DNA from: Catajapyx aquilonaris
Taxonomy: Eukaryota
Assembly (NCBI GenBank): GCA_000934665.2
Contig: KZ538380.1
Location: forward strand, 1-64,000
Length of the DNA: 64,000 nt
Direction: 5' to 3'
Shown: positions 7,306 through 63,398 of the stretch, piece by piece
How the letters are laid out: every line of letters starts with the position of its first letter
Position numbering within the stretch: the stretch's first letter is position 1
The notes under the pieces: generated by a model
What the model saw: only the letters and a program-made list of their open reading frames with translations
Told to the model about the DNA's origin: nothing
The model's database searches: none
Made by a program: the position numbers and the translations under genes

Positions 7306-9670
7306 CTAAAAAGACAAGCTGGACATGGCAAGCTGACGGGTTCGCCTGACTTGTGCCCGTGATTTTGCAGCTCTTAAATTGGCCAATCGCTTATTGATAG
7401 CTTTAATCCTAATGAAAGTTCTGATGCGGGAGTAGACCTGGATAACTTTGGCTGGTACTGCAGGAAATCGCGATTACAATTTATGTATAAGTGTTCTGAC
7501 GACATATTTGTCTGAACGTAGGCTTGTCCCATGTAACGCGGTGAATGCTCCCTCAAACATGTAAACCATGTCTAACCAAGCAAAGCTTGGTTTCGTCAGG
7601 TTACCTCGCGAAATTCTGCCCATCCACCCACTGCCATCACCGTCTGATTTTATCCCCAACGTCGCGAAACTGGTGCGCAAGCGACGAGCGAGATACCCGG
7701 CCACATATTTTAGTCCATCATTACCCTGCTGTTTTTCCACTGCATGTCATCTGTGCCTTTCTGGGTAGAAGGATTTTCTCCTTTGGGCTGCCACACCTCT
7801 CCTGCGTCAAATGTCTCAGTTCTTGTTTTCCAAATGAAGGGCTAAGTATTTTTGATGTCTCATAATTTACTGTCTGATCACGTTCATTCACACTCGCATT
7901 CTTCGATATTCCTGGCAATGTAGGACATAGGAGGAGTTGTTTCATCCGATATTTAAAATCAGTTGGCAAGGGATTGGCATTAAAATTTCCCAGCCCGCGC
8001 ACCTGGCTAAAGAGATTTTCTAAGCAGTCTTGGTTACAGCGACTTGTCATGACATAAGACATTCCTTTGTTGTTAACATCTTCGTACGAACTCCTGATGG
8101 ATGAAATACTTACTAGTAGCCCTCTCTGGAAAGGCAGACGTCTGCTTTTTTTTAAATCTCCAACTCGCATAGTTTTGCAAAAATCTTCCATTCTTGAGAT
8201 AATCTCATCCTGCTGGTTTAGTGTCACTCCATAAGCACTTTTCTTCCAGTTGCTTCCGTGTCTCGGTACCTTGGAATTCATAACGTCAAAAAAGTCATCG
8301 ACTAATTCAAACACCTCGGACGATTTTTCGTCTTCTGTAACATTCAAATTCATCCTGATCATATAATATATCATCCAAAATATCCTTGGTAATGACACTG
8401 CCACATCCAAGGGCAAAACCACTGTCTAGGAAATGATTACGCAGGAGTTTTAATAGGTGAGGTATGTCGGCAAAAACATGCCCTCTTTCACTGGGAATAT
8501 CAGGGTGCATGAAATGACTGCTTGAGGGTGATATCTTGAGTTCTCGCCAGAGTCTTGCATTTTTTCCCCCCATATTGGAAACTACCCCCACAACAACATA
8601 TTCTGCTTGGTACAGAGTGGTAATTATATTGAAAAGAATCTCCTTGGTCATCTGCCTGTCAAATTCATAAAAGATAGGCTGCATCCATCGAGAAAACAGT
8701 CCCCTTATCATAACCACTTGCACATCCTTGTGCGGACCCAACACCTGGTCTTCCTCTGGATCATACACTACACGTGAATCAATGCTCATCTCATCAAATG
8801 AGAGCACGCACATCTTTTCCCTCATTGTCCTCTCCAATGCACTGGTTTTCAAAATGTCCACGGCTCCTCTAATAATTCCTGGCGAGCAGCAGAACGATCG
8901 GCACCATCTTCGCAGAGTGCTGATGCTCGGTAACGGGAAGTTCAGTTTCTCCCGGAGATAGCTGTAGGCTTTCCGGGAGTGCGACCTTAAAGCCAAAGCC
9001 GAGGCGATATCCTCCGATGTCCACTTGCGCGAATAGTTTCCACTCATAAGACACTTCACTTGTGTTTCAGTCAACACTCGGCTTAGAATTTTTTTGACCG
9101 CGGTTGCGTTCCATTTTGAATTCTTTTGTTTTAGTTTCTTTATTTGTAAGAGCATGCTGCTCTTCTCAGTGCGTAGTTTCCTGACATCGCAAAACAGATT
9201 TGAGTTAGATTCCTGCAGCTCTTGCTTTTGCTGGTTTAATGAACTTACAAGAGTCTGAAATCTCTCCTGCATGTCTTGGACCACCTGTGCATGTTGTTGG
9301 CGACTTGCCTTCAGTTCACTCGTTAATGACTCCACCTTCACTCTTAGGTCTTCTTTGTCTGCGCGTGTTTTGTCCAATTCACTGGACATCACCGAAGCAC
9401 ATAGGAGATCCAGGGCTGGCTTTGGAATCTGCTGCACAAGCGCACTGCAGTGTTGGCTGGATTCATCTGAATGATTTATCGCGCACTCTTCGACGCTCGA
9501 CCCATCTTCAGGCTGACCTTCAGTGCACTGTGCGGCTTTGCAAGTCGTGACGTGCTGGATGCTGGATGCTGGATGCTGGATGCAGGTTGATCAACAACAG
9601 CAAGAGCCAACTTCTTGCTACGGTTAATAAATCTGGAGGAACGTGCTGATTCAGGATCATGTTCATGCCC
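7306..9670 (-). pseudogene. P-element/THAP9-like transposase, disrupted
   Basis: ORFs 8307-9437, 7721-8422, 7474-7740 and the frame continuing to 7306 join into a P transposase: AYSYLR...PLPSISTLRRW, LSFDEMSI, FADIPHLLKLLRNHFLD, NQDCLENLFSQVRG, YVAGYLA, RTFIRIKAINK; frameshifts, an in-frame stop, and SDMG read as SNMG. Confidence 0.9.
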
Positions 9671-21283: not shown

Positions 21284-21535
21284 ACCCCGGGGGTCGCCGA
21301 CCCTGACAGTGGTTTTCTGTGGTGTCCCACGGTCCCACCAGGACAATTCCGGGGTCGTGTCCGTAATTATAGGCCACAGCCGCTTCCTTCCGTCCCTATC
21401 CCATCCCCAATAAGGAAAAAGCAAAAATGCAAGAAAGAGTTCAAGACAGAAAAAAATATGGTGGTATCCCCCCCCCCCCTAAGAGAGCCCATGGCTCTAG
21501 CACGGGGTACAAATTATTATTATATTATTATTATT
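21284..21535 (+). mobile_element. 5'-truncated SINE
   Basis: 15-bp TSD ATATTGCTTAATATC, (ATT)n tail, core GGTTTTCTGTGGT...AGGCCACAGCCGCTTCCTTCC shared with 30501-30921. Confidence 0.85.
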
Positions 21536-21773
21536 ATATTGCTTAATATCTAGCAAGATAACAGGTTTTTGAAATGAAACATCAGCCTCAATTTACACAT
21601 GCAGTACAACATTTATGCCTAATTTGCTTAATATCTATTTATACAGAGAGTGGCAGTGGGTGCCAGCTCCTCTCTGAAGTGTCCACCTGATTACAATTGC
21701 TAGTGATTAAAAATATTCAGGCTAACAGCACTGCAACCAATCAGCAATAAAATGTCAATCAGTTATGACTAAC

Positions 21774-22368: not shown

Positions 22369-22699
22369 CAGCCCGGGGACATTTCTATCCCAGGCCAATA
22401 GAAAAAGCTGTGCCGTTATCTCTTCCCGCAGAGGCGCTAATATATCTGCAATGGAATCCCTCGGTGGGTCATAAGTTCAGCGCCCCTTCCTGCACAACTA
22501 TCCACTAACCCCTAGCTCTAGGTCACGCTCTAGGTGTTAGTGCATAGTTGTGCCGTAAGGGGCACTGAACTTATGGCCCAGCGAGGGATTCCATTGCAGA
22601 TACATCAGCGCCTCTGCGGGATGGAATAACGGCACAGGGGTTGGAATAACGGCACGCAAGATAGCGGCAAGTGTCCCGACCTATTGTTTTAAGACCGTG
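22369..22699. mobile_element. Palindromic MITE with CA..TG ends (P- or hAT-type)
   Basis: 8-bp TSD CACAAGAC at 22361-22368 and 22700-22707; ~230-bp internal hairpin at 22408-22637. Confidence 0.7.
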
Positions 22700-29269: not shown

Positions 29270-31740
29270 TTAATAATAATATAATATAATAATAATATAA
29301 CAATATATTTATTTCCTTGTTACAATTGATGTAAATGGAAAGCCTCCTGCCAGGAGATTTACATAACCAAAAAGAAAAAAAAAACATTTGCATAATGTGT
29401 TTACATACTAATATCGCAAAGTTGTAGTTTTTTACAGCCATTGAAAAAAATCTGCACAGCGCAAAAACCTTTATGGGCAGCATATCGATAAATAATGTAT
29501 ACAATTTTTCTGGCGGTACTCCTTGAAATTCATTTACACAACCCCTTACTTAACTCTGAAAAATAAACATTCAAATAGGAGGACATGAAAAAACGTCATT
29601 TCTGTCATCATATTGCATAACGAGCAAATTTCCTCTGACTGGAATTTTAAGCAATATCCTTGGATATATAGAACCTTTGACTTGTTTCTTATATTGATCA
29701 GCATACGAACCAGTTTCAGTGGCATCGACCTTTGTAAATATGTTTCATGTAAGTAACCATTTGACACATCAATGTAATGTTTGTAAGCTCTCGTGTTATA
29801 CAAATCCTTCATATCCCTTTCGATTGTATTATCCACAAAGGTGGTCAGCATTTTGTTCACATCCATAGTATCATAGTTTTGCTGCCAGTAAGCCCATGTA
29901 ACACCCGCATCTTTCAATAAAATTTCTACCGATGCGAACCAGTCCCAACCATTTCTTTTCCTAGTACTTGTTTGGTACTGAAAGGCTTGGCCAATTTGAC
30001 TGCTTTGGGGCTCCATAGTTATTTTCCTCAAAAACAAGAACAACCTTTGCATAATTTGGAGCGAGATTGGTCTACAACCAGTTTCCAGTCTTTAAAAAAA
30101 ACCAGCACAAGAGCGAGGCAAGGTAAAAAATTTTTTCAAAAAAAACGTCTGGACTCGTTCTAATTCATGTGTGCGTTATACAATACAGCTGGTACCACCT
30201 GTGCGTCAAACAGCCTCATTGCTGTGTTTATATTCCTCAACTTTAACTTAATCAGGTTTGGCCACATCATATTTCTTAATTTCTTGCCCTCGTTAACAAA
30301 ATAATTTAGCGCTGTATTGGGGTTTCCAGTTGTCGACAACAGAATTTATACTCCTTCACTATTTCCAACTTTTCTCCATCACAAAAAAAACTTGGCAATT
30401 TTCTGCCCCTCCGAAATACCATCACCTTGGTTTTAGCCAAGTTTAAGTGTAATTCATTTTCCTTTAAATAGGCTGTAAAAACATTTATTGCTCTCTGCAA
30501 CCGAAGCAGTAGTGGTGTAGTGGATATGGTGTCCTACTGCTAATCGGGAGGTCCTGGGTTCGAGTCCCAGAGGCCGGAGGTTCTGACCTTGGTTTTCTGT
30601 GGTTTTCCAAGGTCACCCCAGGGAAATCCCGGGATCATACCGTTAAATAGGCCACAGCCGCTTCCTTCCTTTCCCTGCTATGGAGGAGGCACGGTGTTCG
30701 GTGGGGAGCTTCCGGCCGCGCCTAGGGGGGGTGTCTAAGCTTGGCCCCCTGAGGGACTGCACACGGCCCCCACCACAGGACAATGCACTGCACCTTTGTT
30801 CCTCCCTCCCTATCCCTTCCCTGTCCCTGCACCGGTGAGATTGAAAAGTATAGAAAATGGAGGAGATCTCCTCCCCCTGCATTGACCAATTGGACTCAAG
30901 GGGGAACCAAAATAAATAAAATATTGCTCTCGGCAAATATAATGGTTTATCAGTCAAAATAACAATGTCATCCGCGAATTGTAGAAAATTTATATCCCTT
31001 TTGCCTGGGCCAAAATTTACCCCCGGTATTCCATTATCAGTAAACAGGTTTTCCATATCTGCCATATACAAATTAAATAAAACGGGACTTAGTGGTTCCC
31101 CCTGCAATACTCCCTTACCTATCGGGATGACTGTGTCATTTCCCTTTGCTATTATTACTGCATTTTCATACATATTAATTACAGTTTCCAAGAACTTATT
31201 TTTCCCTATTCCGTACCTCCCTAGATTTTCCGATAGTAGTTTGTGATTGACAGAATCAAAAGCCTGTTTTAGGTCCACGAATACTGCATAAAGTTTCCCT
31301 GATTTTTTTCCCACATATTTTTGTACTAGTGAATTTAATACAAAAATCAAATCTGCACACGATCTTCCTTTCCTAAACCCAGCTTGCGATTCAGGGAACC
31401 AATCCATCTTCTCAGCCCATAGAGACAATCCGTTTACTAATATCGATGTGAGCAATTTTAACAGGTGGTTTAGTAAAGCTATGGGTCTATAATTTTGCGG
31501 TTCCTCGGGGTTTCCCGCTTTAAATATCGGTATCATACGTATTTGTACCCAATTTCTCGGTAAAACCCCCGTTGCCAAGATCTGGTTATACAATTTCAAC
31601 AATAAAGCCTGCAATTTGGGGGACTCAAGTTTCATTATTTCATTTGGGATTGAATCCGGACCCACCGCCTTCTTTAATCGTAAACGTCTAATACTCCCCT
31701 GGAGCTCAGCCAATCTTATATCACCGTCCAATTCTTCTAT
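29270..31740 (-). mobile_element. Non-LTR retrotransposon (RT ORF2), 5'-truncated and interrupted
   Basis: KAVGPDSI, NYRPIALL, QAGFRKGRS, FVDLKQAFDSV, GVLQGEPLSPVLF, QFADD, NLAKTKVMVF, C-terminal CSLCN..H..C; AATAAA plus ATT-rich tail near 29270-29312. Confidence 0.92.
30501..30921 (+). mobile_element. tRNA-derived SINE inserted into the RT ORF
   Basis: A box AGTGGTGTAGTGG, B box GGTTCGAGTCC, A-rich tail; TSD TATTGCTCTC(T/G)GCAA duplicates the L(Q/P)RAI codons. Confidence 0.9.
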
Positions 31741-31741
31741 A

Positions 31742-32166
31742 CAGGGTGTATCTGAACTCAGTGCCCCGACGTATATGCCTGCCTTCCTAGCCACCACAGG
31801 ATCAACTTATGTAGAGGAGTCATTATGTCTGGGCAGCCTCATTACTGAGATACACTCTTTAGCATTTTTTGCCTAATCGCTCCTTCTGACTTTTAAATAG
31901 AATTTTCTGGTGTAACTAGCCAAAGAGGCCTTACCACCTGTGGGCAACAAACCAACAAAGTCCCGCCCCCAGACCTTCCAGAGCCTTCTGACTGGGGGAG
32001 GGTTCGATGGGTGGCCTAACCGACAGGATATTTTGTACTACATGTTTGCGGCCAATTATCTCAGTAATGCGGCGGCCAGACATAATGACTCCTATACTTA
32101 AATCGCTCCTCTGGTGGCTAGGAAGGCAGTCATATACGTCGGGGCACTGAGTTCAGATACACCCTG
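31742..32166. mobile_element. Tc1/mariner-type MITE
   Basis: TA|CAGGGTGTATCTGAACTCAGTGCCCCGACG...CGTCGGGGCACTGAGTTCAGATACACCCTG|TA. Confidence 0.9.
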
Positions 32167-33650: not shown

Positions 33651-33654
<4 letters not shown>

Positions 33655-33725
<71 letters not shown>

Positions 33726-33978
33726 GATAGCCCGTGATAGGCCCCTTGGGCCTCTTAGGGGATCATCTTTTGAATAACCGACTTTAATCATTTGCCTGCA
33801 ATGTGATGGATTTTGATAGTGGGAGGAAACGGGAGAACCCCGAGAAAACCCACGCGAACACGGAGAGAACCCATCGAAACTCTATCCTCATAAGTATCCT
33901 CCGTCCAACCCGGGGATCAAACTCGGGACCTTAGAGGTGGAAGGCTGTGGCGCTAACCACTCTGCCACCGTGTCGCCC
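33655..33978 (-). mobile_element. tRNA-derived SINE (V-domain-like) with long microsatellite tail, nested in the Sola element
   Basis: 16-bp TSD AGCCAAATATAGTATA; A/B boxes; (TAA)n at 33655-33723. Confidence 0.9.
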
Positions 33979-48252: not shown

Positions 48253-50230
48253 TAATTTAAGCTCATATTTTGTACTAATACTAGACAGTTTCCAGTCATT
48301 TTCTTAGATTTAAACAAAGTAATTATTCAGGTACTTGTGTCAAATAAACTACCTGCCTTCTCTAGACCCAAAGTATTAATTTATTGTTGGTCGACAAACA
48401 GACTGTATTTTTGTATGGAATAAAATGTCACAGTTTCACCTCAGCCTTATGGACACCTTTCCAAACACATGGACGAATGGTACTGAATGCAGGTAGTAAT
48501 GAAAGGGGGAAAGGGTGGAGGGTGAAAGTCACGCTTTTACATGGAAAGATGCGTAAGAATAGTTTTTTAAAAGGTCATTATTCAAAGGTGAATGTACAAA
48601 TGATTACAGACTGAAGAGTTGTAATGCATGAGAATAGTTTTTAAAAAAGTAATTATTCAAAGGTGAATGTACAAATGATCCAGGCTGACTTGTGAACCTC
48701 TCTGTGAGCTCACTCTGTCAGTTGTCGGACAACTTGGTTCCACTCCAAAGGACAAATTAATCCAACTCCTTATTCCTCAGGGTTCCCAGGATTGAGTGCC
48801 CACAAAACAAGTGTGCATTAAAAAATGGGGTAGCACACGTTGGGGCAACTCATCACATATTCATGCACTGGGCCAATTTGAATTGAAGTACAATTGTTGC
48901 ATATGTACAGTTCCGAGCATAAAGTTGGAGATGGCAGGCCCTCCCCTCCGGAGGGAACTTGGGTCAATCCACACCATTACGGTATCAAATACACTAATAC
49001 ACATATAAAGCAGCTGATAACTCGGCCAAAAAAGTGTCAATTAATTTAAGTTGGATGAAGAGGGTCAGAGAAGGCCCGCAACTATACCTCTCTGTTGTGA
49101 AGGGCTTGTCAATAGGCTTTATCAAGGAAGACGGTCCTGTTCAAATGACAGGTGGGAGTCAAGACAGTAATGGCAAGTCAAAGAAGTAAGGACAGTTATT
49201 TAACATAACTATTGATACACCACAATCTGATTTTCCGCAAGAAAGTTGTACTGTTGCCCTGACATCCAAGGGGGTACTCACTTCGGTACTCTGGTGTACA
49301 CCTGCAGTGGTACTCTTCAGTACTCCTTAGGTACTCCGGTGTACACTTTACAGTCGAGTGAGTACCCCCTCTCTGACATCCATCAAATTCTCGTATTTGT
49401 ACAGTGGTGTTTATTTATTACATGGTAATATGTAATGGACAGGAAAAAAATTCTGTGACTTTCTCGTTGTTACGTCATCTCGCATTTATTCTCTTTGAAC
49501 TGCATCTGTAAATAGGCTAGACCATATCTATACACCCACAATCTCGCTACGAACAGTTACATGTGGTAACACTTCAGACTCGAGATTGAAGGGTTCCAGG
49601 TTCAAATCACGGTGCTTCTTTGATTGTGATCTGTAGAAGAAAAAAACTTTCCCTTCTACATCATGCCAGCACTTCTCTTTAACAATTTATCCACTTATGC
49701 AATCAGTATGGGTGCAATTGGAGGTTATCTGGAAGGATTTTTAGGATGGGATGGGTTTGGAGTTTGGATCAGCAAGACAAGGAGAAAGGCCCAGAAATGA
49801 GGTTTTTGATGACCCACAGAAAAGCCGGTGCAAAAGCTGTTGGATTCTCTGTAATGAATCGGGTGTGGAGATATCTAATATATGCACACTTATTTCATTT
49901 ACATGCTGTATTCCTTTACAGTGGCATTTTTATTATCCACAAATTAAATGCACTAGTAACGGAAACATCTGCCCAAAATGTACTACTTATATCCCATTGG
50001 CCATAAGGGTTCATGATGATATTGTCATGACCATGTCAGAATCAGTGTCAGGGATCAGGGGTGGGCTCCAAGTGGAAGGTCACTTCTTAAGACATTTCCT
50101 TTTCACAGCAATTTTCTTTATTCTAGCAAGGTTGCCACATGATCATACCACCTGCACATGAGGCATGTATCGGCTCTTGCAGGACTTATCCCTATCATAA
50201 ACAAATGCGCAATGAAATCTGGGATAAACA

Positions 50231-50958
50231 CAGGGTCATTGAAAAAGAATGCACGTATTTTAAAACCCTATAACTCGAAGACTTGAGACATATCCTAGTC
50301 ATTTGAGTTTTGAAATACTAAGAAAGGTCTAAAGTTTTGGTCTCACTTTAGTTTGTTTCAATATAAGACTTATTTGTCGCTCGGCCAATTTTAAAAGGCA
50401 ATATTCGGTCTCGTGCCAAACCTGCTTAATAATATCTGGAGAATTTACTGTTTCAATCCTATCCCATAGTGCTGGATATGGTGGGTCTCTACACCACACA
50501 CATTGTTCTTGATGATGCACATAAAAAGTCCCCTCATTCATGAAACAAACCTGCCATAGGAAAGTTTCATTTGTTCGGCGTCCCAGTGTGCAAAGTCTCG
50601 AATGAGAAGTTTCTCAATGCCTAGCCCCAACAAGAGCCCAGATCTTACCCCAATTAACTTTTTTGTGGTGACATATGCATGACGAAAAGATTCGGCATCT
50701 CCAGCACCTACGGGAAAAGATGCAAAGGTATTGCCAGACATGTCTGCCGTCAGATGTCTGAGCAGGTTAGGCATAACATCAATTATCGTATAGATATATT
50801 TAGAGCGACAAATGGAGCTCAAACCAAAACAAACTATGGAAAGACCAAAACTTTAGACCTTTCTTAGCATTTCAAAACTTAAATCATTTAGATACAGTAT
50901 GTCTACAAGCTTTCAGTTATAGGGTTTTAAAATACACGCATTCTTTTTTGATGACCTT
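50231..50958. mobile_element. Tc1/mariner-derived MITE
   Basis: ~115-bp inverted ends starting CAGGGTCAT; internal SPDLTPINFF remnant. Confidence 0.75.
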
Positions 50959-52377
50959 ACACTGAGCAAACTGAATACAAACATCACCTGCATACAAATT
51001 AATTCATGTCATGCTCTGACTTTTTAAAAATGTGGCTACAATACAACAGTGCAATATAAAACCGAATACAGGACACCCATTAATTCAAGATAAAAAACAT
51101 CATGACTCGCACACTACACTATTTTTCGCATAAGGTTAAAAACCGAGACCAATACAAATACAGACACAAAATGATAGACCTGCACGAGCACCTCCATCAC
51201 TTGGGAGAGGCCCTGCTTCAGTAGGCTTACAACCAGAGGTGAGCCCATACCTGTCAACCTCATCAAAGTGAAACTGAAGCCCCTGGCCCTTGGTTGGAGA
51301 GATGGGGGAGGCATGCAAGACCTGGGGCTTCTCAAGAGGTTCTACAAGCCAGCAAGGAAAGTTGCTAAGCCATCAGAGATATTCGATCATGAAGCAGTCT
51401 AGTTTAGTGATCTAGTGCAGTATCACTATAGGGCCAGCCATTGCTCGTACACAATAACTTCAGTAGACCATAGTGGGAATGAGAAAATTTTTTGCCAAAA
51501 TCATTGTAACTGTGTCTTGCATGTTTGGCCTTATAATATAACTGCTGCACTTAATTACTTGATAATTTTAGCAAGTGTGTTTTCAAATATGCATGTGTAA
51601 CTTCATTAGCTCTTGGTAACTTATTGCAAAGGATCTGATTCTAATTGGATGCTAGATCTTATTCTACAAGTACAAAATTTTAAATATGGTGAACTGTGTC
51701 TGTATCTGAGCCCCTAATTTCCAAGCAGAGTGCTGTAACATGCACCAGAACTATTACTGCTTCCTGAGAGAATGGTCCTGACATAAAAATGGCAACACTT
51801 TCAACAATGTAATAAAATTCATCTCTAAGGATCAAAGAAAACTGTTATGCACAAATTTCTGCTGTTTCCAGTGTCTGTTACAGATGAATTTCACTGTAAC
51901 AATGTGTGTACCAGCTGGATAAATGAAACTTGATTATTTAAAAGTGTGAATGGCATGGTGGAAGGACAAAACGAGGTGTATGCAGATATCCACCTGCAGT
52001 TGCAAAAACAGGAACAGTTGCCCCGCAGAGTCAAGAGATGCACTTTGACGAAGCCAAGAAAGACCACTTGAACACTGCGCTCTCAAAAAAGATTGTGTCC
52101 CACCTTTGTACTTTTTGCCATAGATCATAGTTGCCAACTCTGAATCAATAAATGCATGGCTCCACTAGTCACAATCATGGAAAGCACCTCCACAAACAAT
52201 GATTACATTTTAAGAAGTAAGCAACTTTTATCTTTTGGTATCTGCACCACCTCCTTTGTGATGGAATGCCATTATTTTTTACTTAGATGTCGTTTTCTTA
52301 ACAAAAAAATGTAAAAGTGAAAAGAAACATAAGACCAACCACAAGCCAAGTATTTCACTTGAATATTAAACTGTGAC

Positions 52378-52555
52378 TCATCGCCCCTCCAGAAAAGCTT
52401 CCTTGATCTGCCTCACTGTCTTGAAGCTGTTAAACATCTGCTCCAAGGATGCCCGGGTCATTGGTATGTTGGTATACCACTCGGAACTGTCAGCCTCATA
52501 GGACATCTTTGGACTCAGGTAGAAACAGTTGTTGCGAGGCACCATGAGTCCAGGG
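52378..52555 (-). CDS. DUF3504 (ZMYM/woc/QRICH1-like) gene, last exon
   Basis: After a 68-nt GT-AG intron: (C)PGLMVPRNNCFYLSPKMSYEADSSEWYTNIPMTRASLEQMFNSFKTVRQIKEAFLEGR*, matching the ZMYM FYL.P...WY...VRE terminus. Confidence 0.85.
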
Positions 52556-52623
52556 CTGTTAATGTTATAATATTTGTAAGAACTCGACTTTCCCGTAAAA
52601 ACTCCAAAAAGAAGTAAACTGAC

Positions 52624-52720
52624 CATTTAGACAGGTAAAACTCGTAATGCTTCACTGGACAGCGCTGGGGCAGATCCTTGTTTTGAAACTGCTCATAATA
52701 ACTGCGCATTTTGTTCTTGC
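52624..52720 (-). CDS. DUF3504 gene, exon 3
   Basis: CTTCTTGCAG acceptor; KNKMRSYYEQFQNKDLPQRCPVKHYEFYLSKC matches the ZMYM P.RCPVKLYEFYLSKC motif. Confidence 0.88.
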
Positions 52721-53876
52721 CTGCAAGAAGAAATAAATCAGTTGTTTCAAAAACAAAGTCCAATGAAGCAACTTTTGAGAAAAACACAAAAAACTGGTCC
52801 TGGTCATTCCCATCATTACTTTTGTTATTATTATTATTATTATTTTAGTGAATATTCCTCATTTATAGAGGAATATAATATTGCATATTATATCTAGAAA
52901 TTGCCCATGGAATCTGTGAAATTTGAATGGAAACTTAGTGGACTTATGTCCTTTTCAAAACAACTGGGCATGAAAGCAAGTTGTCTACATGAAATTATTT
53001 TTTATATTGTTACAAGTTATATTTATGCTTTTTTGTTTCGTCGTCACTTTCTGCTATAGTTGTTGACCAGCTAATTAATGTTTCATAGAATACTATGTGT
53101 TGTTGGGGGATGTACAGTACTTGATATCTTCCATCATGTGGACATTGAAATTTCCATTTTTTTGCACTAGTTGCGACATTGCAGTATTCAAGAGAGGTTT
53201 AGATATTATGGATATCTTTCATTGCCTGCTTTAAACCCAAAAAATCACAATCGCAAGCAAGCAACATGGCAGTGTTAACTCAAATATTCCAAGTAGTGGA
53301 CATAAGTCTTTTCGAAACAACTTATTCAAATAGCATCAGGTTCACTTGTTGGCGGCCACAAGTTTGCATGCAGTGTATGAAATTATCAACTCATAAGGTA
53401 GGTTCTTCATTCAGCATTATTATATTTTTCAAAGATCCTACAAGTACAGTGTTGGCCATATATCGAGGCAACCGCCAGCGATATTTCCCGAAGCGGCAGA
53501 AGAAGGAATCTTGCTCGCCCGGCTTGTAAGTATGCTTATCATCCTACTGGCCTCAAACAGACGACAAGTGTTGGGTGCCAGTACAGCATGTTCTTTGCGT
53601 TCCCCACTTCTATTACAGGCAGATAATACAAATTACATGAAGTGTCTACTGAACTGATTGATAGAAAGTGGTTGTCCTACCAGAAAAATTTGTCTGATTA
53701 GAGAAGTGAACATTCTGCAGGCTTCACGGTGAGGGTAAGCACATTGAATGTCCTGATTTTATGTAAAAAGCTATTTTTAACTACTAAAAGTAAAATATAT
53801 AAACTTTTTATTGTAGATTTGGAAAGTTCACAAACTTAGCTTTCCAATGGTACCATGTTTGTCACTCTATGGACTA

Positions 53877-54882
53877 CAGGGTTGGCAATAATCAATGATT
53901 ATTTTGAAATAATCAAATAATCGGATTATTTTGATTATAATCGGATTATTTTGATAATAATGTTATTATTTGTAGTACAGCACTTTATTTCATATTCCTG
54001 ATAAAAACCCCACCTGCTATTTGAAGAAAATCAAGAAATGTATGTCAATATTGTCAAACATGTTACATTCCAAGGAAAGTACAATATAATTATACAGTCA
54101 ATCCTCGTTTAACACGGATTCCGCTTACTTGGGAGCGACTAGCCGACTACACTATTCAGTAGTGTATACCTGTGTATACATACCTGTAAGTCTGTAACAC
54201 TTACAGTATTATTGTACACTACTGTATTACGCAGAAAGCAGTGCCTGATGTACTACCTCTGTGGCTCTGTCATGTTCTCATGTACTGATTATGATAATTA
54301 AACTGTAGTTTACTACATATAGAATAGTCAAGTCTCAAGAGTCAAGAGTTTTAACCCTTAACTACGTAGGTGGGCGAAACACCTTTAACTACGTAGGTGG
54401 AGCCTGAGAGGCTCCAACGGTATATTTAAATTTATGCTTATCAACTAAATTGTTATATTGGACTTTTCACATACAGAAAGTGCAGTTCAGATCATTAGGC
54501 TTCCGAAAACGTAAAAATCACACGCTGAGTCAGCATATTCCGACAGGGAAAATTTTTTAAATTAAAAGGTTACATCAACAACTTTGAGTCGCTCTGGCTT
54601 ATTCACCTGCATAGGGATAACCTGAGTGGTTAGAGGGACCTGTTCCTCGTTACGAATTTTTTTAAACCAAAGTATAGGGACTAAAAAAAATTTTCTTTCA
54701 TTTTCATGCTTAGGAAGGGTTTTCTGACAAAGTCACGGAAGGAGAGTGGAAAATAACATTCAATGAAAAAGTTACATGCGCTTAAATAGTGCTTGGAGCC
54801 TCTCAGGCTCCACCTACGTAGTTAAGGGTTAAGTTTTAAATTTTTGACTGGTGAGTTTGTGATTATTGGTAGGATAAATGTA

Positions 54883-54935
<53 letters not shown>

Positions 54936-55018
54936 GTGATTATAATCAAGATTTTCATTATTAATCAGTTGATTATAATCATGATTATAATCAATTGATT
55001 ATAATCATGCCAACCCTG
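53877..55018. mobile_element. hAT non-autonomous element
   Basis: CAGGGTTGGCA...TGCCAACCCTG, perfect 8-bp TSD ATGGACTA, subterminal ATAATC/GATTAT repeats. Confidence 0.9.
54355..54828. mobile_element. piggyBac-type MITE nested in the hAT element
   Basis: TTAA|CCCTTAACTACGTAGGTGG...CCACCTACGTAGTTAAGGG|TTAA. Confidence 0.9.
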
Positions 55019-55561
55019 ATGGACTATCCAAGTTTAACAATTTGCTAGCAAAGTTTCGAGGTCATGGTATTTTTTGACATGCTAATTTCATTTTACAATT
55101 GTAAATAGTCACCGATCATCAAGAGATAATCAAAATCTGATGGAAGTTTTGAAATCAGCAGGTTTCAAATCATGAGTGTAGCAATTTGTAGGTGTGTAGT
55201 ACAAGTAATCACTGCATAGAAAAATAAATTACAAGACATTGCACCTTTCCCAACAATCTAGCGAAGCTCTTTTCCCATTTATGACCAATATTTTGAAAAA
55301 TTCACAACTTTTGATATAACCAAGATATTGACCTAAATTTTGAGGATCTCTCTCTTTTAACACGTGCAACAAGTGTACCTAATTTGATCAAAATCTGAGA
55401 TGGTCGGGTGGCATTCTGTTTTTTCTCTGGATGATCTGACATGGAATGACCCAGAAGCCTATCTCATATGTTTTTCAATGGACTGGCATTAACGACCAAA
55501 ATAATAGCAGCAGGCAGCATAAAATAGTATTAATCAGTAGGACCAGACTAGCTGACTATAC

Positions 55562-55963
55562 CTAGCAGACTGGCTGGGGGATAGAAGCGCAGAATAATCC
55601 TTTTCTCCGTGTTACTTGAGGTGGCACCGACAGCAGGTGAGGAAGTCCCAGATGAGGTGACGTTCTGGTAGTGCCTCATGAGGTGTGTGAAGGCCAGCTG
55701 CATGTGATCCTCCACGCTTCGCAGGCCAAAATAGCGAGTGTTAAAGTACAGGATGGTGTTCAGGAGGGTCACTGGCGAATGGACTCCCAGCTGCTTGCTC
55801 TCCCACAATAGCTCTTCTTCAATGTAAGAGACCAAGCTCTGCTCAGACTCTGAAGCCAGTGGGAATAATCTGGACACTGTTTCATCGAGGCATTCTTTGG
55901 GCTCCTTGTTGTCCAAATCCAAGATGTCCTGACGATTATTCGCAGGTAGGTCCTTCTGGATAT
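55562..55963 (-). CDS. DUF3504 gene, exon 2
   Basis: TTTGCAG acceptor, phase 1/1; SYIEEELLWESKQLGVHSPVTLLNTILYFNTRYFGLRSVEDHMQLAFTHLMR...LRFYPP is the ZMYM2-4/woc/QRICH1 DUF3504 core. Confidence 0.92.
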
Positions 55964-56693
55964 CTGCAAATGGGGCCATGTCATTCTGGAGTCTCCTCAA
56001 CAGTGCATTATTTTTCAGAGCCATAAACAGCAAGGAGGGGGCAAATTTATAAGAGATTAATTCATCCATGGACAAACTAAACGCCACCCTCCACAATCAA
56101 GTACAGTATGTATAAGTGCATTTTTCTCCTAATTTTTACTTAGCCAAATGAAGATTATGTGTCTTTGAATATACAGTACTTTATATATGCTACAGCACTT
56201 TAGTCACCCGTCAACATTAGAAGGCTGTAGTGGTGTGACTGAGAATGAATCTTAAAAGATATCAGCAATGGGAAATAAAATGCAGCGCTGCTTTGAACTC
56301 ATGTAATTATTGTTGTCAACCCTTTATTCAGTTACCTTTTTAGCAGTCACATGTGATCAATTCATTTTTGCCTTGATCCCCAACTTTTAGTCCGGTGATA
56401 TTTCTACAGCACAAATACAGAGTCATACCAAAATAATAGAATCTCTCCCTGAGCATGCATTACAATCCCCCAGGATCATCACTCGTCCAAAATATGGCAA
56501 CAGTGGCTGACAAAATAAAGTACCGTATGTAAATGCAATGAGGACTGGATTACGCGGACCAGCGTGGACTACTACTCACTTCTATCACATGTGAACGAAA
56601 AAAGTACCGGTATTTATTTCTTCATTTGATGCACAATGCCACCGCAACAATGCATTTTAAAAGTGATGGCACAGGATAGTCAAGTCTGGTTTA

Positions 56694-56865
56694 AGCTGCG
56701 TTTACATGCGAGCGATTTATCAGCGATGTTGCAGCAATTGTACTGTACATTGCTCAGCGATGAGATCAATATTGTTTGGGGCGAAAATATTTTATACCAC
56801 CCTGTACCACCTTGGTACCACCATTGTTACATCGCTGATAAATCTCTCGCATGTAAACGCGGCTT
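56694..56865. mobile_element. Harbinger-like MITE
   Basis: AGCTGCGTTTACATGCGAG...CTCGCATGTAAACGCGGCT inverted ends in TTA/TAA context. Confidence 0.7.
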
Positions 56866-57204
56866 AAAACGATGAAATTCTTAACAAAAATCATTTCAAA
56901 TACCTTAATATAGGAATATGGACACTCCAAGACATCGCCCTCTACATTGTTTGTGACCCTTAATTGCATGGCAACAATAGCGGTGTCAAAAATTATGCTT
57001 GTAAATGCAGGGTGTTCCAAGGTCGTGGGTAGTTTTTAGTTATCACTGATATCACCCAAAGTAGTTATTTTATGTCGCTATATTGTTGTGCCCTGATAGT
57101 GCCCCAGGTGGTCGAATAAACAGCAGTTTCAATGAAATAGGGCACATGGTTAGGGTTTAGGGGCACAAGAAGCTACAAAAAAAAAATAATAGCAGCTTCG
57201 AGCA

Positions 57205-57680
57205 AAAGGACATGGCACAAAATGTATGCGGGCCAGTGGCCTTCCGTTCGATTTGCCTGAAAATGGGATATGTTGTATCTCATACTGTCCTGATCAATGT
57301 TAGATAGGGACATTTCGAGGTAGGACCTACAGGGAGCATGCTAATATAATATGAGGAGTATAGTATAGTTACTATACTCCCCATATTACCTTCGAAGGTC
57401 ATTAGCATGCTCCCTGTAGGTCCTACCTCGAAATGTCCCTATCTAACATTGATCAGGACGGTCTAAGCTGCAACATATCCAATTTTCAGGCAAATGAAAC
57501 GGAAAACCAGACCATGTCCCATAGTACCTTTGGAGGTCGTCATTAGCACACTCCCTGTAGGTCCTACCTCGAAATGTCCCTATCTAACATTGATCAGGAC
57601 AGTCTGGGCTGAAACATATCCCATTTTAAGGCAAATCGAACGGAAGGCCACTGACCCATACATTTTGTGCCATGTCCTTT
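57205..57680. mobile_element. Palindromic element with internal arm duplication
   Basis: AAAGGACATGGCACAAAATGTATG...CATACATTTTGTGCCATGTCCTTT; block CTCCCTGTAGGTCCTACCTCGAAATGTCCC present twice on + and once inverted. Confidence 0.7.
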
Positions 57681-57686
57681 CCTATA

Positions 57687-58013
57687 TAGTAGAACCACGA
57701 TTATCCGTCACCCATGGGACTGTGGCATCGTCAGACAACCGAAAAGGTTGGATAATAATCCGAGGAGTAAAAAAAAAACTTTAATAAAACAATACACGTA
57801 AAACATGAAATAAACGTACAATATTATGGTTTCTAAGAAATTGCAAAGTATTTTTCTTTAACTCACACACTCTACTGTACTGAATTTACAATATATTTAA
57901 CAAAGGCAAAACAAACAAATGCTTAGAACATTACAGTATTTCATGAGAAAACAGATTTATTGCCGGAGAGGGATGGTCAGATAATACGAGGTCGGATAAT
58001 CGGGGTTCTACTG
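57687..58013. mobile_element. Tigger/pogo-like MITE
   Basis: TAGTAGAACCACGATTATCCG...CGGATAATCGGGGTTCTACTG|TA. Confidence 0.75.
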
Positions 58014-58370
58014 TAACTAAAAACCCCACAACCATATTTTGACATGTAATTGGACTGTATTGTTGGTTTCCAGTTGTGTCAACTCTCAGGTTAATGACAG
58101 TCAGCAAAGGTCAGGTTGGCACTTGGGAGTGTTGGCACCACTGGCAACCAACAATAAAATCTAGTTACCGATATGTCCAAACTTTAAGGTCACCCTGTAT
58201 AATTACTCGGATTTAAGCAGGCATTTTAACGATAGGCCTACATATACGGAATGACTGTGTGGCTTTTGTTATCCCCGCTTAGAAAGTGTTTCGCTTTATA
58301 AGTGTACTGGTACTCTACGCTGTTTTCATTACTGAAACTGGACAGCATTTGGTACTACACAAACTGATAT

Positions 58371-60348
58371 ATGGCTAATTCCATGCGTGACTTACACGAC
58401 ATGACACTCCGTTTATGCCTAACTTTTAATTTTTTAAAGCACAAACTTAACATTTAAGGAAAGGGTATTTAATCAGAAATAGGTAGTGTGTATCTAAGTG
58501 TTAATTAATGTTTTCATTTTAACAGTTGCACATTTCATTTGAGTTATATAAATATATAACGGAATTCGTGACTTACATGACAAGAAAGCCACTGGTAAGA
58601 GAGGCTCAGATACAAATGTAAAATTCTTCACATTTATGACTTAAATACTACTGTTATTGGGGTGAGGATATTTTCAAAAACCCAAATATATTATTATGTG
58701 TACTTGGTGTTATGTTATTAATTTTACAAGAAATAAATTATTTCTTTTGTGACTTACATGACACTTTTGTCCTCATTGCTTTCTGATTAGATACATGAGA
58801 AGAATGTTGGATATTTAGGACAGTAGTAATCTCTCTTATTACATGTTATTTTATTAAAACATTTAAATCATAGGCCTACATGAGAATGTGCAGGGCTCCA
58901 TTTTTAAAATTAACATTTGAACATGTATAATGCATACATAATGCATGTACCTGAGCAGACAGCAGTGGAGTCATTGTATTGTCATGTGAGATGGCCAGGT
59001 GTGATACGTGATGGTCATTGCTGGCCACCCTGTCATGGGATAATTATAATGCCAGGAAGGCGGAATGTGTATGTAGGCTACTACTGTACATTGCATGTAG
59101 TCCATATGTGTATAAATGGTCTATAAATTAGTAAACTTGCCCAACAAAGCATGTAGTGAGTTCTGTCCATTACATTTGCAGTCAATGACAATCCAGTTAT
59201 CTGCTTTGTTATCGGTAAAACTAAAAGCTGATTCATTACTATTTGTCGATTCTGCAGGCAAATTACACATTTGGGATGAATTAGCTGTATGAGTACCGGA
59301 AGTTCGTGGTACAATGTCTTCAATAAGTAAAGTTAAAAATAAACAATATCAAACTCAAAAATGGAAGCATTGGAAATAAGACAATGTTCTAGTTCATAAT
59401 GTCCAAGTGTACTGAAATAATGAGATTCTCTTAGTCAGGAAAATAAACAACAACTTTTCCAGTAGGATTCCACATTTCATCAAGCAGAGCTATTCTTCTT
59501 TCAATATCCTTTGATTCAATGAATATAATATTAATATTTGGATAAACTCTGTGGGCAACTTCTGCAAATTCTCCAGCAGTGTTTGGATCAAACTGTCTGG
59601 CATTGATGGCTTTCTCAAACTCTACATTTTACCTTCAAAGCGTCTCTCTCACTAAAAGTCATACATTTTTTAAAAAATTACACCTTTCTTTTTGCCTTTC
59701 CAATGCACTTATCTCGGACAGCTCCTTGATTTAACTACATTTGCATTTTCTTCCATTCCACTACTGTAAGTGCCATTTTACCAGCCGGGAAACAATAGTG
59801 ACAGTGGCATTCAAGTGGATTCATGACGTACACGACAAAAATTAAATGCCCATAACAATGTTCAGACAAAAATCATTATTATTATTTGAAGGGTACTACT
59901 GTGTAGTGAGAAGGTAATTAATATCAACTTTTAGATTTTGGTATACTACAGTTAAATTTTTTAAAAAGGTCAAAAAATTGTGACTTACACAACACAAAGA
60001 TGGTATATAAACTAGCTAATTTTTATGCTGAATAAGTCATTGCAATGGAAAGATAAATATATAGTACATTCATCCAGTTCTTATGTGATAGAAATCATAC
60101 TGCATGAAAAACACTACCTCACGTGTTGAATTTTGAAGATTTTTATGGAGCCTTACAACAAAGAAATTTGCACGCTCACCATATTGGAAATAAACAGTGT
60201 TGTTAACTTGAATGTATATGACAATTTTCTAATATCTGTTCAAAAATTTAAAAAAATACACAATCTCAGCTTTCAGAAAAGATCATGGTATCATAGAAAT
60301 CATTTATTTTAAAATCTGACCCTGATGTATTCGCATGGAATTAGCCAT
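58371..60348 (-). mobile_element. Non-autonomous DNA transposon (Sola-like relic)
   Basis: 17-bp TIR ATGGCTAATTCCATGCG/CGCATGGAATTAGCCAT, internal GTGACTTACA(C/T)GAC repeats, minus-strand remnant EFAEVAHRVYPNINIFIESKDIERR. Confidence 0.6.
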
Positions 60349-60897
60349 CATTTAAATTAAATTTTGCACAAAGCCGATTAAATTTTTTTCGCACTCTTTC
60401 TATGCAGGAAGAATTCCATTATTAGATAAGAGGCAGCAAGAGCACATTTATACCTGCCTGTGCATAAAATTGGCGAACCTTGCTCATTCATGTTGCTATC
60501 ACACATTTGCGTCATTTTCTCATTTTTCTCGCATTCCATTTCATAACTGAAAGCTGACGCCCGATTTCCCTTACATATGACTTTTATCTCTGTACTTTGG
60601 TGCTATTGTCTGCTGTTATTAAGTGGCCAGCACAATAATGGCTGCTACAGTAATAAAATCTACCTGCACCGGAATTGGATATGACAAAAACCTTTCTATA
60701 ATAGGCGTACCTAGGTAAAGTTTGCCACCATGGCAACAAGAGGGGCGTTTGCTGGACAATTTTACCGTGGGACGTTGCCTCCCTCTACACAGCAGTCTAC
60801 ACAGTATACCGATGAAATCCTTCATATTGTAATTATTACACAGAGACTAATAAGTTAATCAGTCGCTCTCGCACTCAACCCTGTGAAGTTAACATAC

Positions 60898-61081
60898 CTT
60901 TTTCAGTATTCTGACCATGGTTGGCGTCATCGTCATGGTCGGTATTGTCAGCCGTCGCCAGACTTTTATCGTCGCTGACGTTGTCCAGTTTCAGGGACTC
61001 ACTGCTGGGCACGGGATTGCCCACGGGATCCATTTGGGAGTCTGATGGCACCAACCCAACGCCCTGTTGACAACTCGCCAT
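60898..61081 (-). CDS. DUF3504 gene, putative first coding exon
   Basis: GTGATGG start after an in-frame upstream TAG; acidic MASCQQG...DNTDHDDDANHGQNTEK; strong G|GTATGT phase-1 donor matches the exon 2 acceptor. Confidence 0.65.
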
Positions 61082-62446
61082 CACAACCCCACTACAGCCC
61101 TGCACTGACTGCCAGTGCCAGAAGCCAGACTGCCTGCTCCTGATGTGCGGTCCTCCCACCTACCACCAGTGTGCGCAGCAGTAGCTACCCGGCGCAGCAT
61201 CATGGCGGAGGGAGGCTGACTCTTTCTTCGCCAGCATGCATGGCAAGGCATCTAGGTCATGATCTTAGCATGATGTTTTGCTGCATTGTTTTCTAGGGAA
61301 AATATGCATAAATACCATAATTCCATAAATACCGATATCTGCACTAGGCGCCACCAACTAGATAAGGCAAACCTGCCACCCGGATTTGGAAGAATATCAT
61401 ATTATGCAATAACTACAAAAATTAAGCCATGGTATAACTGCTACCGTGGTATAGACTTCTAAAATAATATACGCGTACGTCATGTTAGATAGTCAGGAAC
61501 ATTTCGTCGGCAACAAGGAGAAAGGGCGAATAAACCATTTTTGATGTTATGAGAGGTAAAGAGGTTGAAAAGACCCAGTCAAAATAAATGGAGACTGATT
61601 TTTTATGTGACAAAGAGAATCAGTTCATGACTCATGGTGAATGGCATCGTGTCCAGTATGGATGGAAAAGTATTAGAACACCGATTCTTGCTGTTCAAAT
61701 ATTCCGCGATCTCAGGCGATGGTGACTCCGGAAGTAGACCTAGGTTCACATATTTGACCTCAGCACTGCCCGGAAGTCGGTGGTGAGACCCAATATTCAG
61801 GGTTGGGGTTTTGCTTCCGTTTGAATAAAACAACCACACAGGTGTACATGAGTGGGTGAAGGACTTGGGTGGGGAAGGAGCCCTGAGTGCACCCCTCATG
61901 CGCTTTTTCTTTGGCCTCCCTCCCGTGCACCCTCCCTGGGGGGCTCATTACCGGCATGTCATCCCGAGTACTGGCCAGGCCTTGGTGCCCAACATGTGCA
62001 AATGATCAATGCAAAATCGTGTGGACACTATCACTGGATGTATCATGTATACCACACATTCTGGCAAGGTCGTCGACGGTTATGCGGTGATCTTCCGCGA
62101 CAATCACTGCATAGGACATAGGTGGTGTCAATGATCTCCTCTGTCAAAAGTCTAAACTGATGGAAGTCTGCAAACCTGTCTCTTTGAAAGCTGACTACTT
62201 ACCCTTGCTGAATGCGTTGTACCATCGGAATGCTGCGGTGGGACACATCTTCGCCAGGTGCAGGTGGGGCGACTGCCCTAGGGCCCCCCAAATTTTCCGA
62301 CGAGTTTTAGAAAAAATTGAGGAAACCCACAAATCCATAATAGTAGGTATATACGTCTATAACCTATATTCTATAAGACGTAAGAAAGCGGGTTCGATCC
62401 AATCAATTCGGGCTCTTACTATCTCTCGCAGTGGCAGTGTCAGTAA

Positions 62447-62819
62447 GGGGTCGTCCATATACCACGTGACCGATTTTCGGGCACTTTTTGACCCCCCCCC
62501 CCCCCTCCACCNNNNNNNNNNNNNNNNNNNNNNNNNNNNNNNNNNNNNNNNNNNNNNNNNNNNNNNNNNNNNNNNNNNNNNNNNNNNNNNNNNNNNNNNN
62601 NNNNNNNNNNNNNNNNNNNNNNNNNNNNNNNNNNNNNNNNNNNNNNNNNNNNNNNNNNNNNNNNNNNNNNNNNNNNNNNNNNNNNNNNNNNNNNNNNNNN
62701 NNNNNNNNNNNNNNNNNNNNNNNNNNNNNNNNNNNNNNNNNNNNNNNNNNNNNNNNNNNNNNNNNNNNNNNNNNNCCCCCCCTCCCCCCAAAACGGTCAC
62801 GTGGTATATGGACGACCCC
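62447..62819. mobile_element. Harbinger-type MITE spanning an assembly gap
   Basis: TAA|GGGGTCGTCCATATACCACGTGACCG...CGGTCACGTGGTATATGGACGACCCC|TAA; N-run 62512-62775. Confidence 0.85.
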
Positions 62820-63398
62820 TAATCAGTACCGTATGGCACAAAAACACTGAAATGAGAAATCATTACAGTAATACAGTAGTAATAGGTAAGGGCTCATAGT
62901 CTACTGCCAATACTTATATCACATGTGGCCACTGGGGCCCCCCGACGAAAATACGTGAGAGACATCATAGCCGTATCCATGGATTGGACCAACATGCAAC
63001 ATGATTGTGGGTTGTGGAGTGTTCAAGGCCTTCCGGCGCCCTCCTGAGAGCCGAATCGTGGGAAATGTTTACACTTAACGCTTACACCTGGTTAGTCTGT
63101 TAGTAACAATGCAGATATTGCACTAGTGGAGAGGAAGTCGTCATGACTCATAGTCTCGACCTGAAAGACAAAGCCAACAGGGGTGGGCCAGTCGCCAGTC
63201 AATCAGACCCACTCACTGATTGAAATGGATCTTATTGTAGTCGCTCTTAATACTTGTGTGAGTTGTGTCTTGTGTCGGGAATTTCAGTTTGGATTGTTTG
63301 TGTGATGGTAGTTCGGACTCGGAGTGTTAACTGTGCAGGTGAACTGTGCAGGTGAACTCGCCATCCTGAGAATAGAAAATGCTCGGGCATTGTCTCTA

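Follow-up and report, generated by a model that had tools for sequence, protein, structure and literature searches.

The window analyzed here comprises the first 64,000 nucleotides of contig KZ538380.1 (Catajapyx aquilonaris, assembly GCA_000934665.2), and on its minus strand, at 52378–61081, lies a spliced gene whose predicted product joins a short acidic leader to the DUF3504 domain that ends the proteins of the WOC/ZMYM/QRICH1 family. Our preferred interpretation, to which we assign a probability of about 0.55, is that this gene is a lineage-specific shortened paralogue of that family, with a new acidic first exon, that has been kept as a partner-binding module. Stand-alone DUF3504 proteins as such are already known. 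What is unusual is an expressed woc-type copy that keeps only the second half of a Cre-like module, and no truncated woc-type gene of this kind is described in the titles and abstract openings of the literature mentioning DUF3504 that was searched.

The gene model consists of four minus-strand exons (61081–60898, 55963–55562, 52720–52624, and 52555–52378), whose joined sequence is an 861-nt frame encoding 286 residues, open throughout from the ATG at 61081–61079 to the TGA at 52380–52378. The preliminary description of this locus, made from the letters of the sequence, had proposed four in-phase exons, a product of about 286 residues, and a frame that remained intact despite strong divergence, and all of this held exactly. 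The three introns, of 4934 nt (55964–60897), 2841 nt (52721–55561), and 68 nt (52556–52623), are all of the GT..AG type, with the exon 1 donor GT at 60897–60896. Exon 1 (60898–61092) contains at least 11 nt of 5' leader (61092–61082), followed by codons 1–61 and one further base, and encodes the acidic leader. The first part of exon 2 (55833–55963, residues 62–105) encodes a degenerate remnant of the QRICH1 domain (PF25561), and the rest of the exon (55562–55832, residues 106–195) encodes the N-terminal part of DUF3504 with a variable loop. Exon 3 (97 nt, residues 196–228) supplies the middle of DUF3504, with the motif CPVK..EFYLSK, and the coding part of exon 4 (residues 229–286 and the stop codon) supplies its C-terminal part, which has the same end point as in the relatives. 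The family motif YLSKCP is re-formed once intron 3 is removed, and retention of this 68-nt intron would shift the frame.

The complete splice pattern is present in a contig from a public sequencing run, here called X1 (85,611 contigs, 31.8 million letters; library type unrecorded). This contig, record 5, is 1946 nt long at a depth of 11.4 and has no letter differing from the window. It spans 51304–52555, omits the three introns (68, 2841, and 4934 bases) at the predicted exon borders (joints 52555->52624, 52719->55561 with the cut at +1, and 55963->60898; CT..AC on the plus strand at the first and third), and ends at 61092. It therefore contains 11 nt of leader, the complete coding sequence, and 1074 nt of 3' untranslated region (51304–52377), and because it joins all four exons, an intron-less form of the gene model exists. 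No run recorded as RNA was among those with this stretch; X1, the only one, holds only a fifth of the sampled words of the stretch, and 33 of its 191 placed contigs are at least 99% alike. The simplest reading is that the intron-less contig is complementary DNA, that is, messenger RNA, of this organism; an origin from a processed DNA copy is formally possible. The contigs of X1 carry no information on strand, ends, transcript start, or level. Three more mismatch-free contigs (records 2–4) lie at 50099–50511, 50600–50834, and 51032–51233, and a minus-strand AATAAA at 50122–50117 precedes the end of the last of them, at 50099, by 18 nt. These hint, as a lead only, at a continuation over 50099–51303 and thus at a 3' untranslated region of about 2.3 kb.

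The domain content of the spliced product is sharply divided. When the exons were scanned separately against the Pfam DUF3504 profile (PF12012, curated cut-off 29.7 bits), matches were obtained for exon 2 (81.6 bits, E-value 8.9e-23, profile positions 2–61), exon 3 (28.7 bits, positions 82–117), and exon 4 (34.8 bits, positions 109–159), and on these profile matches residues 106–286 are a complete DUF3504 domain. Residues 1–61, in contrast, matched no Pfam family and had no homologue; they contain 12 acidic (D+E) against 3 basic (K+R) residues, with an isoelectric point of 4.05. Taken together, residues 1–105 have an isoelectric point of 4.07, compared with 9.08 for residues 106–286, and the roughly 105 acidic N-terminal residues probably have no fold. 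Exon 2 opens with IQKDL, aligned with the IQ of the family motif GIQQYLFENG, which places its start near position 82 of the QRICH1 profile, which has 115 positions (residues 3–39 of the database relative P0078 correspond to profile positions 77–113). Residues 62–105 thus correspond to the last 34 or so of the 115 positions of this domain, in degenerate form; no match to PF25561 at E ≤1 was found in exon 2 or in any upstream frame scanned. The first 81 or so positions are missing from both the contig and the window, and because the contig joins the acidic exon straight to the IQKDL exon, they are missing from this product whatever lies upstream.

The regions that normally precede this part of the protein were also sought in the surrounding DNA. 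No MYM finger (PF06467), QRICH1 domain, or further DUF3504 was found at E ≤1 in any of the 90 minus-strand frames of at least 25 residues between 56203 and 63999. Family matches were confined to exons 2–4 when 63 relatives of at least 300 residues were compared by tblastn with both strands of the whole window, and zf-FCS fingers were absent from the spliced contig, the 90 upstream frames, and the window-wide tblastn search alike. The preliminary description, which reported a 61-residue acidic leader fused directly at xIQKDL and neither MYM fingers nor the region before GIQQYL, is borne out by the composition of the leader, by the joint in record 5, and by these searches. It had also raised the possibility of exons missed in 55964–60897; neither the Pfam frame scan nor tblastn detected coding similarity to the relatives within this intron, and record 5 skips all 4934 nt of it. 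Separately, ten weak tblastn matches, from the middle regions of long woc/ZMYM relatives, fell at 22585–22650 on the minus strand (best E-value 0.071, 22 residues at 50% identity); these are downstream of the gene and are probably low-complexity chance matches.

One alternative is that the contig is 5'-incomplete and that further coding exons beyond 61092, beyond 64000, or in the N gap at 62512–62775 give a longer protein. The window extends only 2.9 kb upstream of the ATG, with 264 of those bases being N, and the contigs do not mark transcript starts; moreover, no X1 contig covers 61093–61342 and the cover further upstream is thin, which is uninformative on where transcription begins. The in-frame stop codon that had been reported ahead of the ATG was found, a TAG at 61162–61160, but the frame is open for the 26 codons between the two and contains several AG dinucleotides. 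Against a longer protein, the ATG lies in a good context (G at −3 and G at +4), no pyrimidine-rich acceptor was seen by eye upstream of it, and record 5 stops at its own last letter, 61092, with no joint or loose end listed there. We therefore regard this alternative as improbable. Even if it were correct, the acidic exon would still replace the first 81 or so QRICH1 positions, so that the product would not be an ordinary woc protein. A 56-codon upstream frame (61081–61251, minus strand, ATG at 61251) has its TGA (61083–61081) overlapping the main ATG as TGATG; it would be relevant only if transcription started upstream of 61251.

The relatives of the protein place it in the WOC/ZMYM/QRICH1 lineage. 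Exon 2, searched with phmmer against 1.84 billion representative proteins, had 527 matches at E ≤1e-3, with 37–62% identity over the matched parts; the best E-value was only 3e-22, and hence no close relative is on record. A profile search collected 2089 proteins at E ≤1e-10, and the best 120 of these, with 39–47% identity to exon 2, were either unnamed or insect proteins that bear the name "without children" or "zinc finger MYM-type protein 2/3/4." Among 29 relatives scanned with Pfam, all contained DUF3504, 28 contained a QRICH1 domain directly before it, and 13 of the 17 with at least 1000 residues contained zf-FCS. Residues 63/64–283 align with the C-terminal 220 or so residues of relatives 1400–1700 residues long, up to the ends of these proteins (for example, 1353–1572 of the 1574 residues of P0003). 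The assignment to this lineage is based on a position inside the family tree, the location of DUF3504 at the extreme C-terminus, and best matches to woc, ZMYM3, and ZMYM4. An orthologue was not found by the word, phmmer, or metagenome searches: a metagenome scan for close relatives gave 189 pattern matches, none of them confirmed, and a single-sequence word search gave one match in its "near" mode and none in its "longer" mode, a result that reflects the limited sensitivity of that search, as the phmmer and profile results show.

Could the gene simply be the ordinary woc/ZMYM orthologue, with MYM-finger exons that lie outside the window? Its nearest matches in the databases are indeed full-length woc/ZMYM proteins, and the upstream sequence in the window is short. 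However, the acidic, non-homologous exon sits where 28 of the 29 scanned relatives have the QRICH1 domain, the remnant of that domain lacks its aromatic core, and the end branch of the protein is 1.62, compared with 0.02–0.17 for the C-terminal module of named insect orthologues. The spliced contig, with its acidic exon ahead of the IQKDL exon, agrees with the earlier suggestion of a product separate from the ordinary orthologue, and we judge the ordinary-orthologue explanation very improbable.

The position within the family is less stable than the membership. A quick LG+G4 tree assigned the protein to a group of 30 rows that includes the insect woc cluster (support of 97 in the Shimodaira–Hasegawa-like approximate likelihood ratio test), whereas a careful tree under the C20 mixture model paired it with the long-branched rotifer protein P0001 (83/76). 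This conflict over the sister group probably arises from long-branch effects. The DUF3504 phylogeny thus supports descent within the woc/ZMYM/QRICH1 family but leaves the sister group dependent on the method, and the insect, woc-specific setting that had been assumed for the gene was not established. Atlas matches to exon 2 gave a hint of molluscs, and those to the protein phosphatase 1-like gene of the window gave no indication of the taxon.

The structural consequences of the truncation were examined on an AlphaFold2 model of a relative, P0005 (319 residues, 48-row alignment, mean predicted local distance difference test score of 91.1), rather than of the spliced protein itself. This model has an N-terminal four-helix bundle (residues 29–49, 66–79, 90–106, and 117–137) followed by a mixed alpha/beta domain. 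In structure comparisons, it matched chain 9hjt_H of QRICH1 (E-value 7.5e-25; template modelling [TM] scores 0.79/0.83) and, ranked after QRICH1, chains of Cre recombinase (probabilities 0.77–0.99, with low TM scores). The start of exon 2 falls at residue 99/100 of P0005, in the middle of helix 3, so that half of helix 3 and helix 4 remain; because the border between exons 1 and 2 cuts this helix, the N-terminal helical domain cannot form. Judged from the model, the remaining DUF3504 is the catalytic-domain-like half of a Cre-like module. The catalytic half of a tyrosine recombinase is able to fold alone, as in the catalytic core of lambda integrase. The QRICH1 C-terminal module is the only solved structure that matched the exons: exon 2 aligns with residues 556–656 of 9hjt_H (E-value 1.2e-17) and exon 4 with residues 719–767 (E-value 9.4e-4), and exon 4 preserves the serine that corresponds to QRICH1 S736, a residue near the SEPHS1 interface.

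Selection and decay were compared on the two sides of the boundary between residues 105 and 106, where the Pfam DUF3504 match begins. Among family columns that are aromatic in at least 80% of the relatives, none of 4 is kept in the remnant (residues 62–105), compared with all 13 in DUF3504 (Fisher P = 0.00042), and the remnant contains a single aromatic residue, whereas 51 relatives have at least 4 there and a median of 9. Hydrophobic columns are kept at 6 of 9 positions in the remnant and at 40 of 44 in DUF3504 (P = 0.086). We argue from the aromatic contrast that the truncation is real and that selection has acted on DUF3504 only. Such a contrast is unlike uniform neutral decay; it is the expected outcome of a cut that robbed the helical domain of its function and of continued selection on the DUF3504 fold.

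The alternative is that the gene is a transcribed and spliced but functionless partial duplicate that is decaying slowly, with a protein that is inert or not made, and several observations weigh on its side and against retention for a function. The protein sits on a very long end branch, 1.62 in the quick tree (median 0.35) and 2.11 in the careful tree (median 0.41), and its identity to relatives reaches 43% at most. Thirteen columns conserved in at least 90% of the relatives are changed (including R108Y, K138R, E244K, and R271S), several of them radically, and DUF3504 keeps 39 of its 49 columns of this class, or 80%, where the relatives keep 98% at the median and never less than 76%. When retention is scored by identity, the remnant (6/9) and DUF3504 (39/49) do not differ significantly. 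In a substitution-only neutral simulation (K = 0.10, 20% of residues changed), 8.5% of the runs stayed free of stop codons, so the open frame alone is weak evidence. The basic clusters that correspond to the nuclear localization signal of ZMYM3 DUF3504 look weakened here when the alignment is read by eye. The cut in the middle of a helix and the failure of every search made to find an orthologue would also suit a duplicate without function. On the other hand, uniform decay would not be expected to produce the contrast of 0/4 and 13/13 aromatic columns or to spare 40 of 44 hydrophobic columns in DUF3504. All six splice dinucleotides, the start context, and 225 homologous codons are intact, and length differences are in-frame only; frameshifting insertions and deletions would, by a rough estimate, push the neutral probability well below 8.5%. 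We consider a functionless duplicate unlikely on balance, although it is to be taken seriously.

The intron positions bear on how the gene arose. Its borders at residues 61|62, 195|196, and 228|229 lie near clusters of ends of fragmentary relatives, at residue 63 (2 ends), 190–204 (12 ends), and 225–229 (3 ends); a fourth cluster, at 100–109 (26 ends), has no intron in this gene. In addition, P0078 has an insertion of ten residues right at the YLSK|C border, and P0019 continues with unrelated sequence after YYPP, and both oddities look like unspliced introns. In excerpts of Kojima and Jurka (PMC3212892, Fig. 7A), two conserved intron positions are reported for the WOC/ZMYM/QRICH1 lineage. These comparisons of sequence indirectly suggest that the introns were inherited from a woc/ZMYM-type gene. 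Inherited introns would mean that the copy came from a DNA-level duplication of 3' exons and not from retroposition or a fresh Crypton insertion. Exon 1 is non-homologous, and the earlier proposal of a partial duplicate that recruited a new first exon is plausible, though on indirect grounds only, namely the cut in the middle of helix 3 and the ends of fragments at the same borders. Neither the exon 1 region nor the other exons had another copy in the window, and because there is no such second copy, exon 1 shows no sign of a repeat origin.

The same evidence bears on the explanation that the gene is a copy, active or decayed, of a Crypton DNA transposon and not a host gene. According to parts of PMC3212892, DUF3504 proteins originated from Crypton tyrosine recombinases and some DUF3504 database entries are Cryptons, and the window is rich in transposon remains. 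Nevertheless, the gene has three spliceosomal introns whose borders match the ends seen in fragmentary relatives of the woc type, retains the last part of a QRICH1 domain, a domain typical of the WOC/ZMYM/QRICH1 lineage, has no second copy in the window, and finds its best matches among host woc/ZMYM proteins, and a Crypton copy is thus scarcely credible.

Under the interpretation that we prefer, that of a shortened paralogue, the 3' exons of a woc/ZMYM-type gene would have been duplicated at the DNA level, the duplicate would have captured a new first exon and a promoter, and selection would afterwards have kept only the DUF3504 fold. The short protein could then bind a DUF3504 partner without the finger array and the other chromatin-tethering regions, and may compete with the full-length factor, modulate it, or serve as an adaptor with a new partner. 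Partner binding is proposed because DUF3504 is a protein-binding module in relatives, namely QRICH1 and ZMYM3. The DUF of QRICH1 binds SEPHS1, and the disease variants L705R and S736N disrupt this binding, as summarized in part of a preprint (bioRxiv 10.64898/2026.10.26.761783). QRICH1-SEPHS1 is described as a co-regulator of zinc-finger transcription factors (Bianchi et al., Science 2025, as cited in a passage of PMC13538652), and the title of PDB entry 9hjt reads "Zincore (SEPHS1:QRICH1) binding to ZFP91 on DNA." For ZMYM3, excerpts of PMC5358723 state that the C-terminal DUF3504 region binds RAP80-ABRA1, that R1274Q abolishes the RAP80 interaction, and that chromatin/histone binding maps to the N-terminus and not to DUF3504; basic clusters in the ZMYM3 DUF3504 act as a nuclear localization signal (PMC6424451).

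By analogy with these proteins, the most likely role would be partner binding that competes with or modulates the full-length factor; the stability, nuclear location, and partner binding of the short protein are inferred. A more specific version is that the gene is a selectively maintained DUF3504-only decoy that, in one animal lineage, titrates a SEPHS1/SPS1-type or RAP80-type partner of a full-length woc/ZMYM or Zincore-like co-regulator, a proposal that is improbable at this level of detail.

Comparison with known systems shows what is shared and what is new. Like WOC and ZMYM2/3/4, the protein has a complete DUF3504, a recognizable QRICH1-domain tail, and an alignment of residues 63–283 with their C-terminal 220 or so residues, with 39–47% identity to the named insect proteins over exon 2. 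Unlike them, it has 286 rather than 1400–1700 residues, lacks MYM/zf-FCS fingers and the first 81 or so of the 115 QRICH1 positions, bears a new acidic leader, and has an end branch five times the family median. QRICH1, a Zincore subunit (PDB 9hjt/9hju), also lacks MYM fingers, and its Cre-like C-terminal module of about 300 residues matches; however, it has the whole two-domain module, an N-terminal CARD-type helical domain, and a long glutamine-rich region, whereas here there is only the second domain, behind a leader that is acidic rather than glutamine-rich and belongs to no Pfam family. Excerpts of PMC3212892 list QRICH1, KIAA1958, and KCTD1 isoform b as finger-less DUF3504 proteins. WegA1 of Clytia, a developmental regulator with a C-terminal DUF3504 (PMC4169000), likewise has no zinc fingers, but both it and KIAA1958 belong to other DUF3504 lineages according to parts of PMC3212892. 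Short database proteins of 308–362 residues (P0005, P0033, and P0001, for example from the rotifer Adineta steineri) are finger-less as well and consist of QRICH1 and DUF3504 domains; in contrast to this protein, they mostly have the full QRICH1 domain, and several may be gene-model fragments. Only P0078 (240 residues) and P0119 (137 residues) start at the same point as this protein, and these too may be fragments. The Crypton tyrosine recombinases (CryptonA) are the source of the fold, as reflected in the match of the relative's model to Cre after QRICH1, but here there is a host gene with introns, single in the window and closest to domesticated proteins, in which a near-invariant arginine of the family is a tyrosine (R108Y).

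Several other features were noted in the window. Intron 2 contains an element of about 480 bp (54351–54832) with inverted ends (54381–54417 and 54793–54829, 97% identical over 37 nt), on which many high-depth X1 contigs, 90–95% alike, were placed; it is probably a transcribed repeat family resembling miniature inverted-repeat transposable elements. (ATT)n microsatellites lie at 52810–52852 and 54873–54948, in intron 2 and the surroundings of intron 3, and similar runs occur at 33653–33726 and 21513–21537. At 62357–62900, 1.4 kb upstream of the gene, the 264-N gap (62512–62775) lies between C/G homopolymer runs and sequence that forms an inverted repeat around it, perhaps a repeat able to fold into a hairpin, perhaps an artefact of the assembly. 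On the plus strand, an intronless 327-codon frame at 1174–2157 encodes a serine/threonine phosphatase of the protein phosphatase 1 type (Metallophos E-value 1.5e-43; STPPase_N E-value 1.2e-09) and might be either an ordinary gene with one exon or a copy resembling a retrogene. On the minus strand, P-element/THAP9-like transposase remains (the Tnp_P_element helix-turn-helix domain and the N- and C-terminal TNP-like RNase H domains) extend over two overlapping frames at 7721–9590, which suggests a frameshifted, decayed copy, and a reverse-transcriptase frame of a retroelement of the type without long terminal repeats occupies 30646–31806 (RVT_1 E-value 2.7e-29). Several further long frames at 29.5–38.6 kb had no Pfam match, and Rfam and tRNA scans of the window gave no match.

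The WOC/ZMYM/QRICH1 genes belong to the oldest transposon-derived genes that animals have domesticated, and the role of their recombinase-derived module is only starting to emerge. In 2011, Kojima and Jurka saw no evidence of more than one WOC gene in invertebrates (PMC3212892), to which the gene described here would be an exception if its host belongs to that group. Were it merely a decaying duplicate, it would be an ordinary by-product of gene duplication. If our interpretation as a retained, shortened paralogue is true, the gene would be a natural dissection experiment, showing that the DUF3504 half of the module can be kept alone, and its 32 kDa protein would offer a small handle for finding DUF3504 partners.

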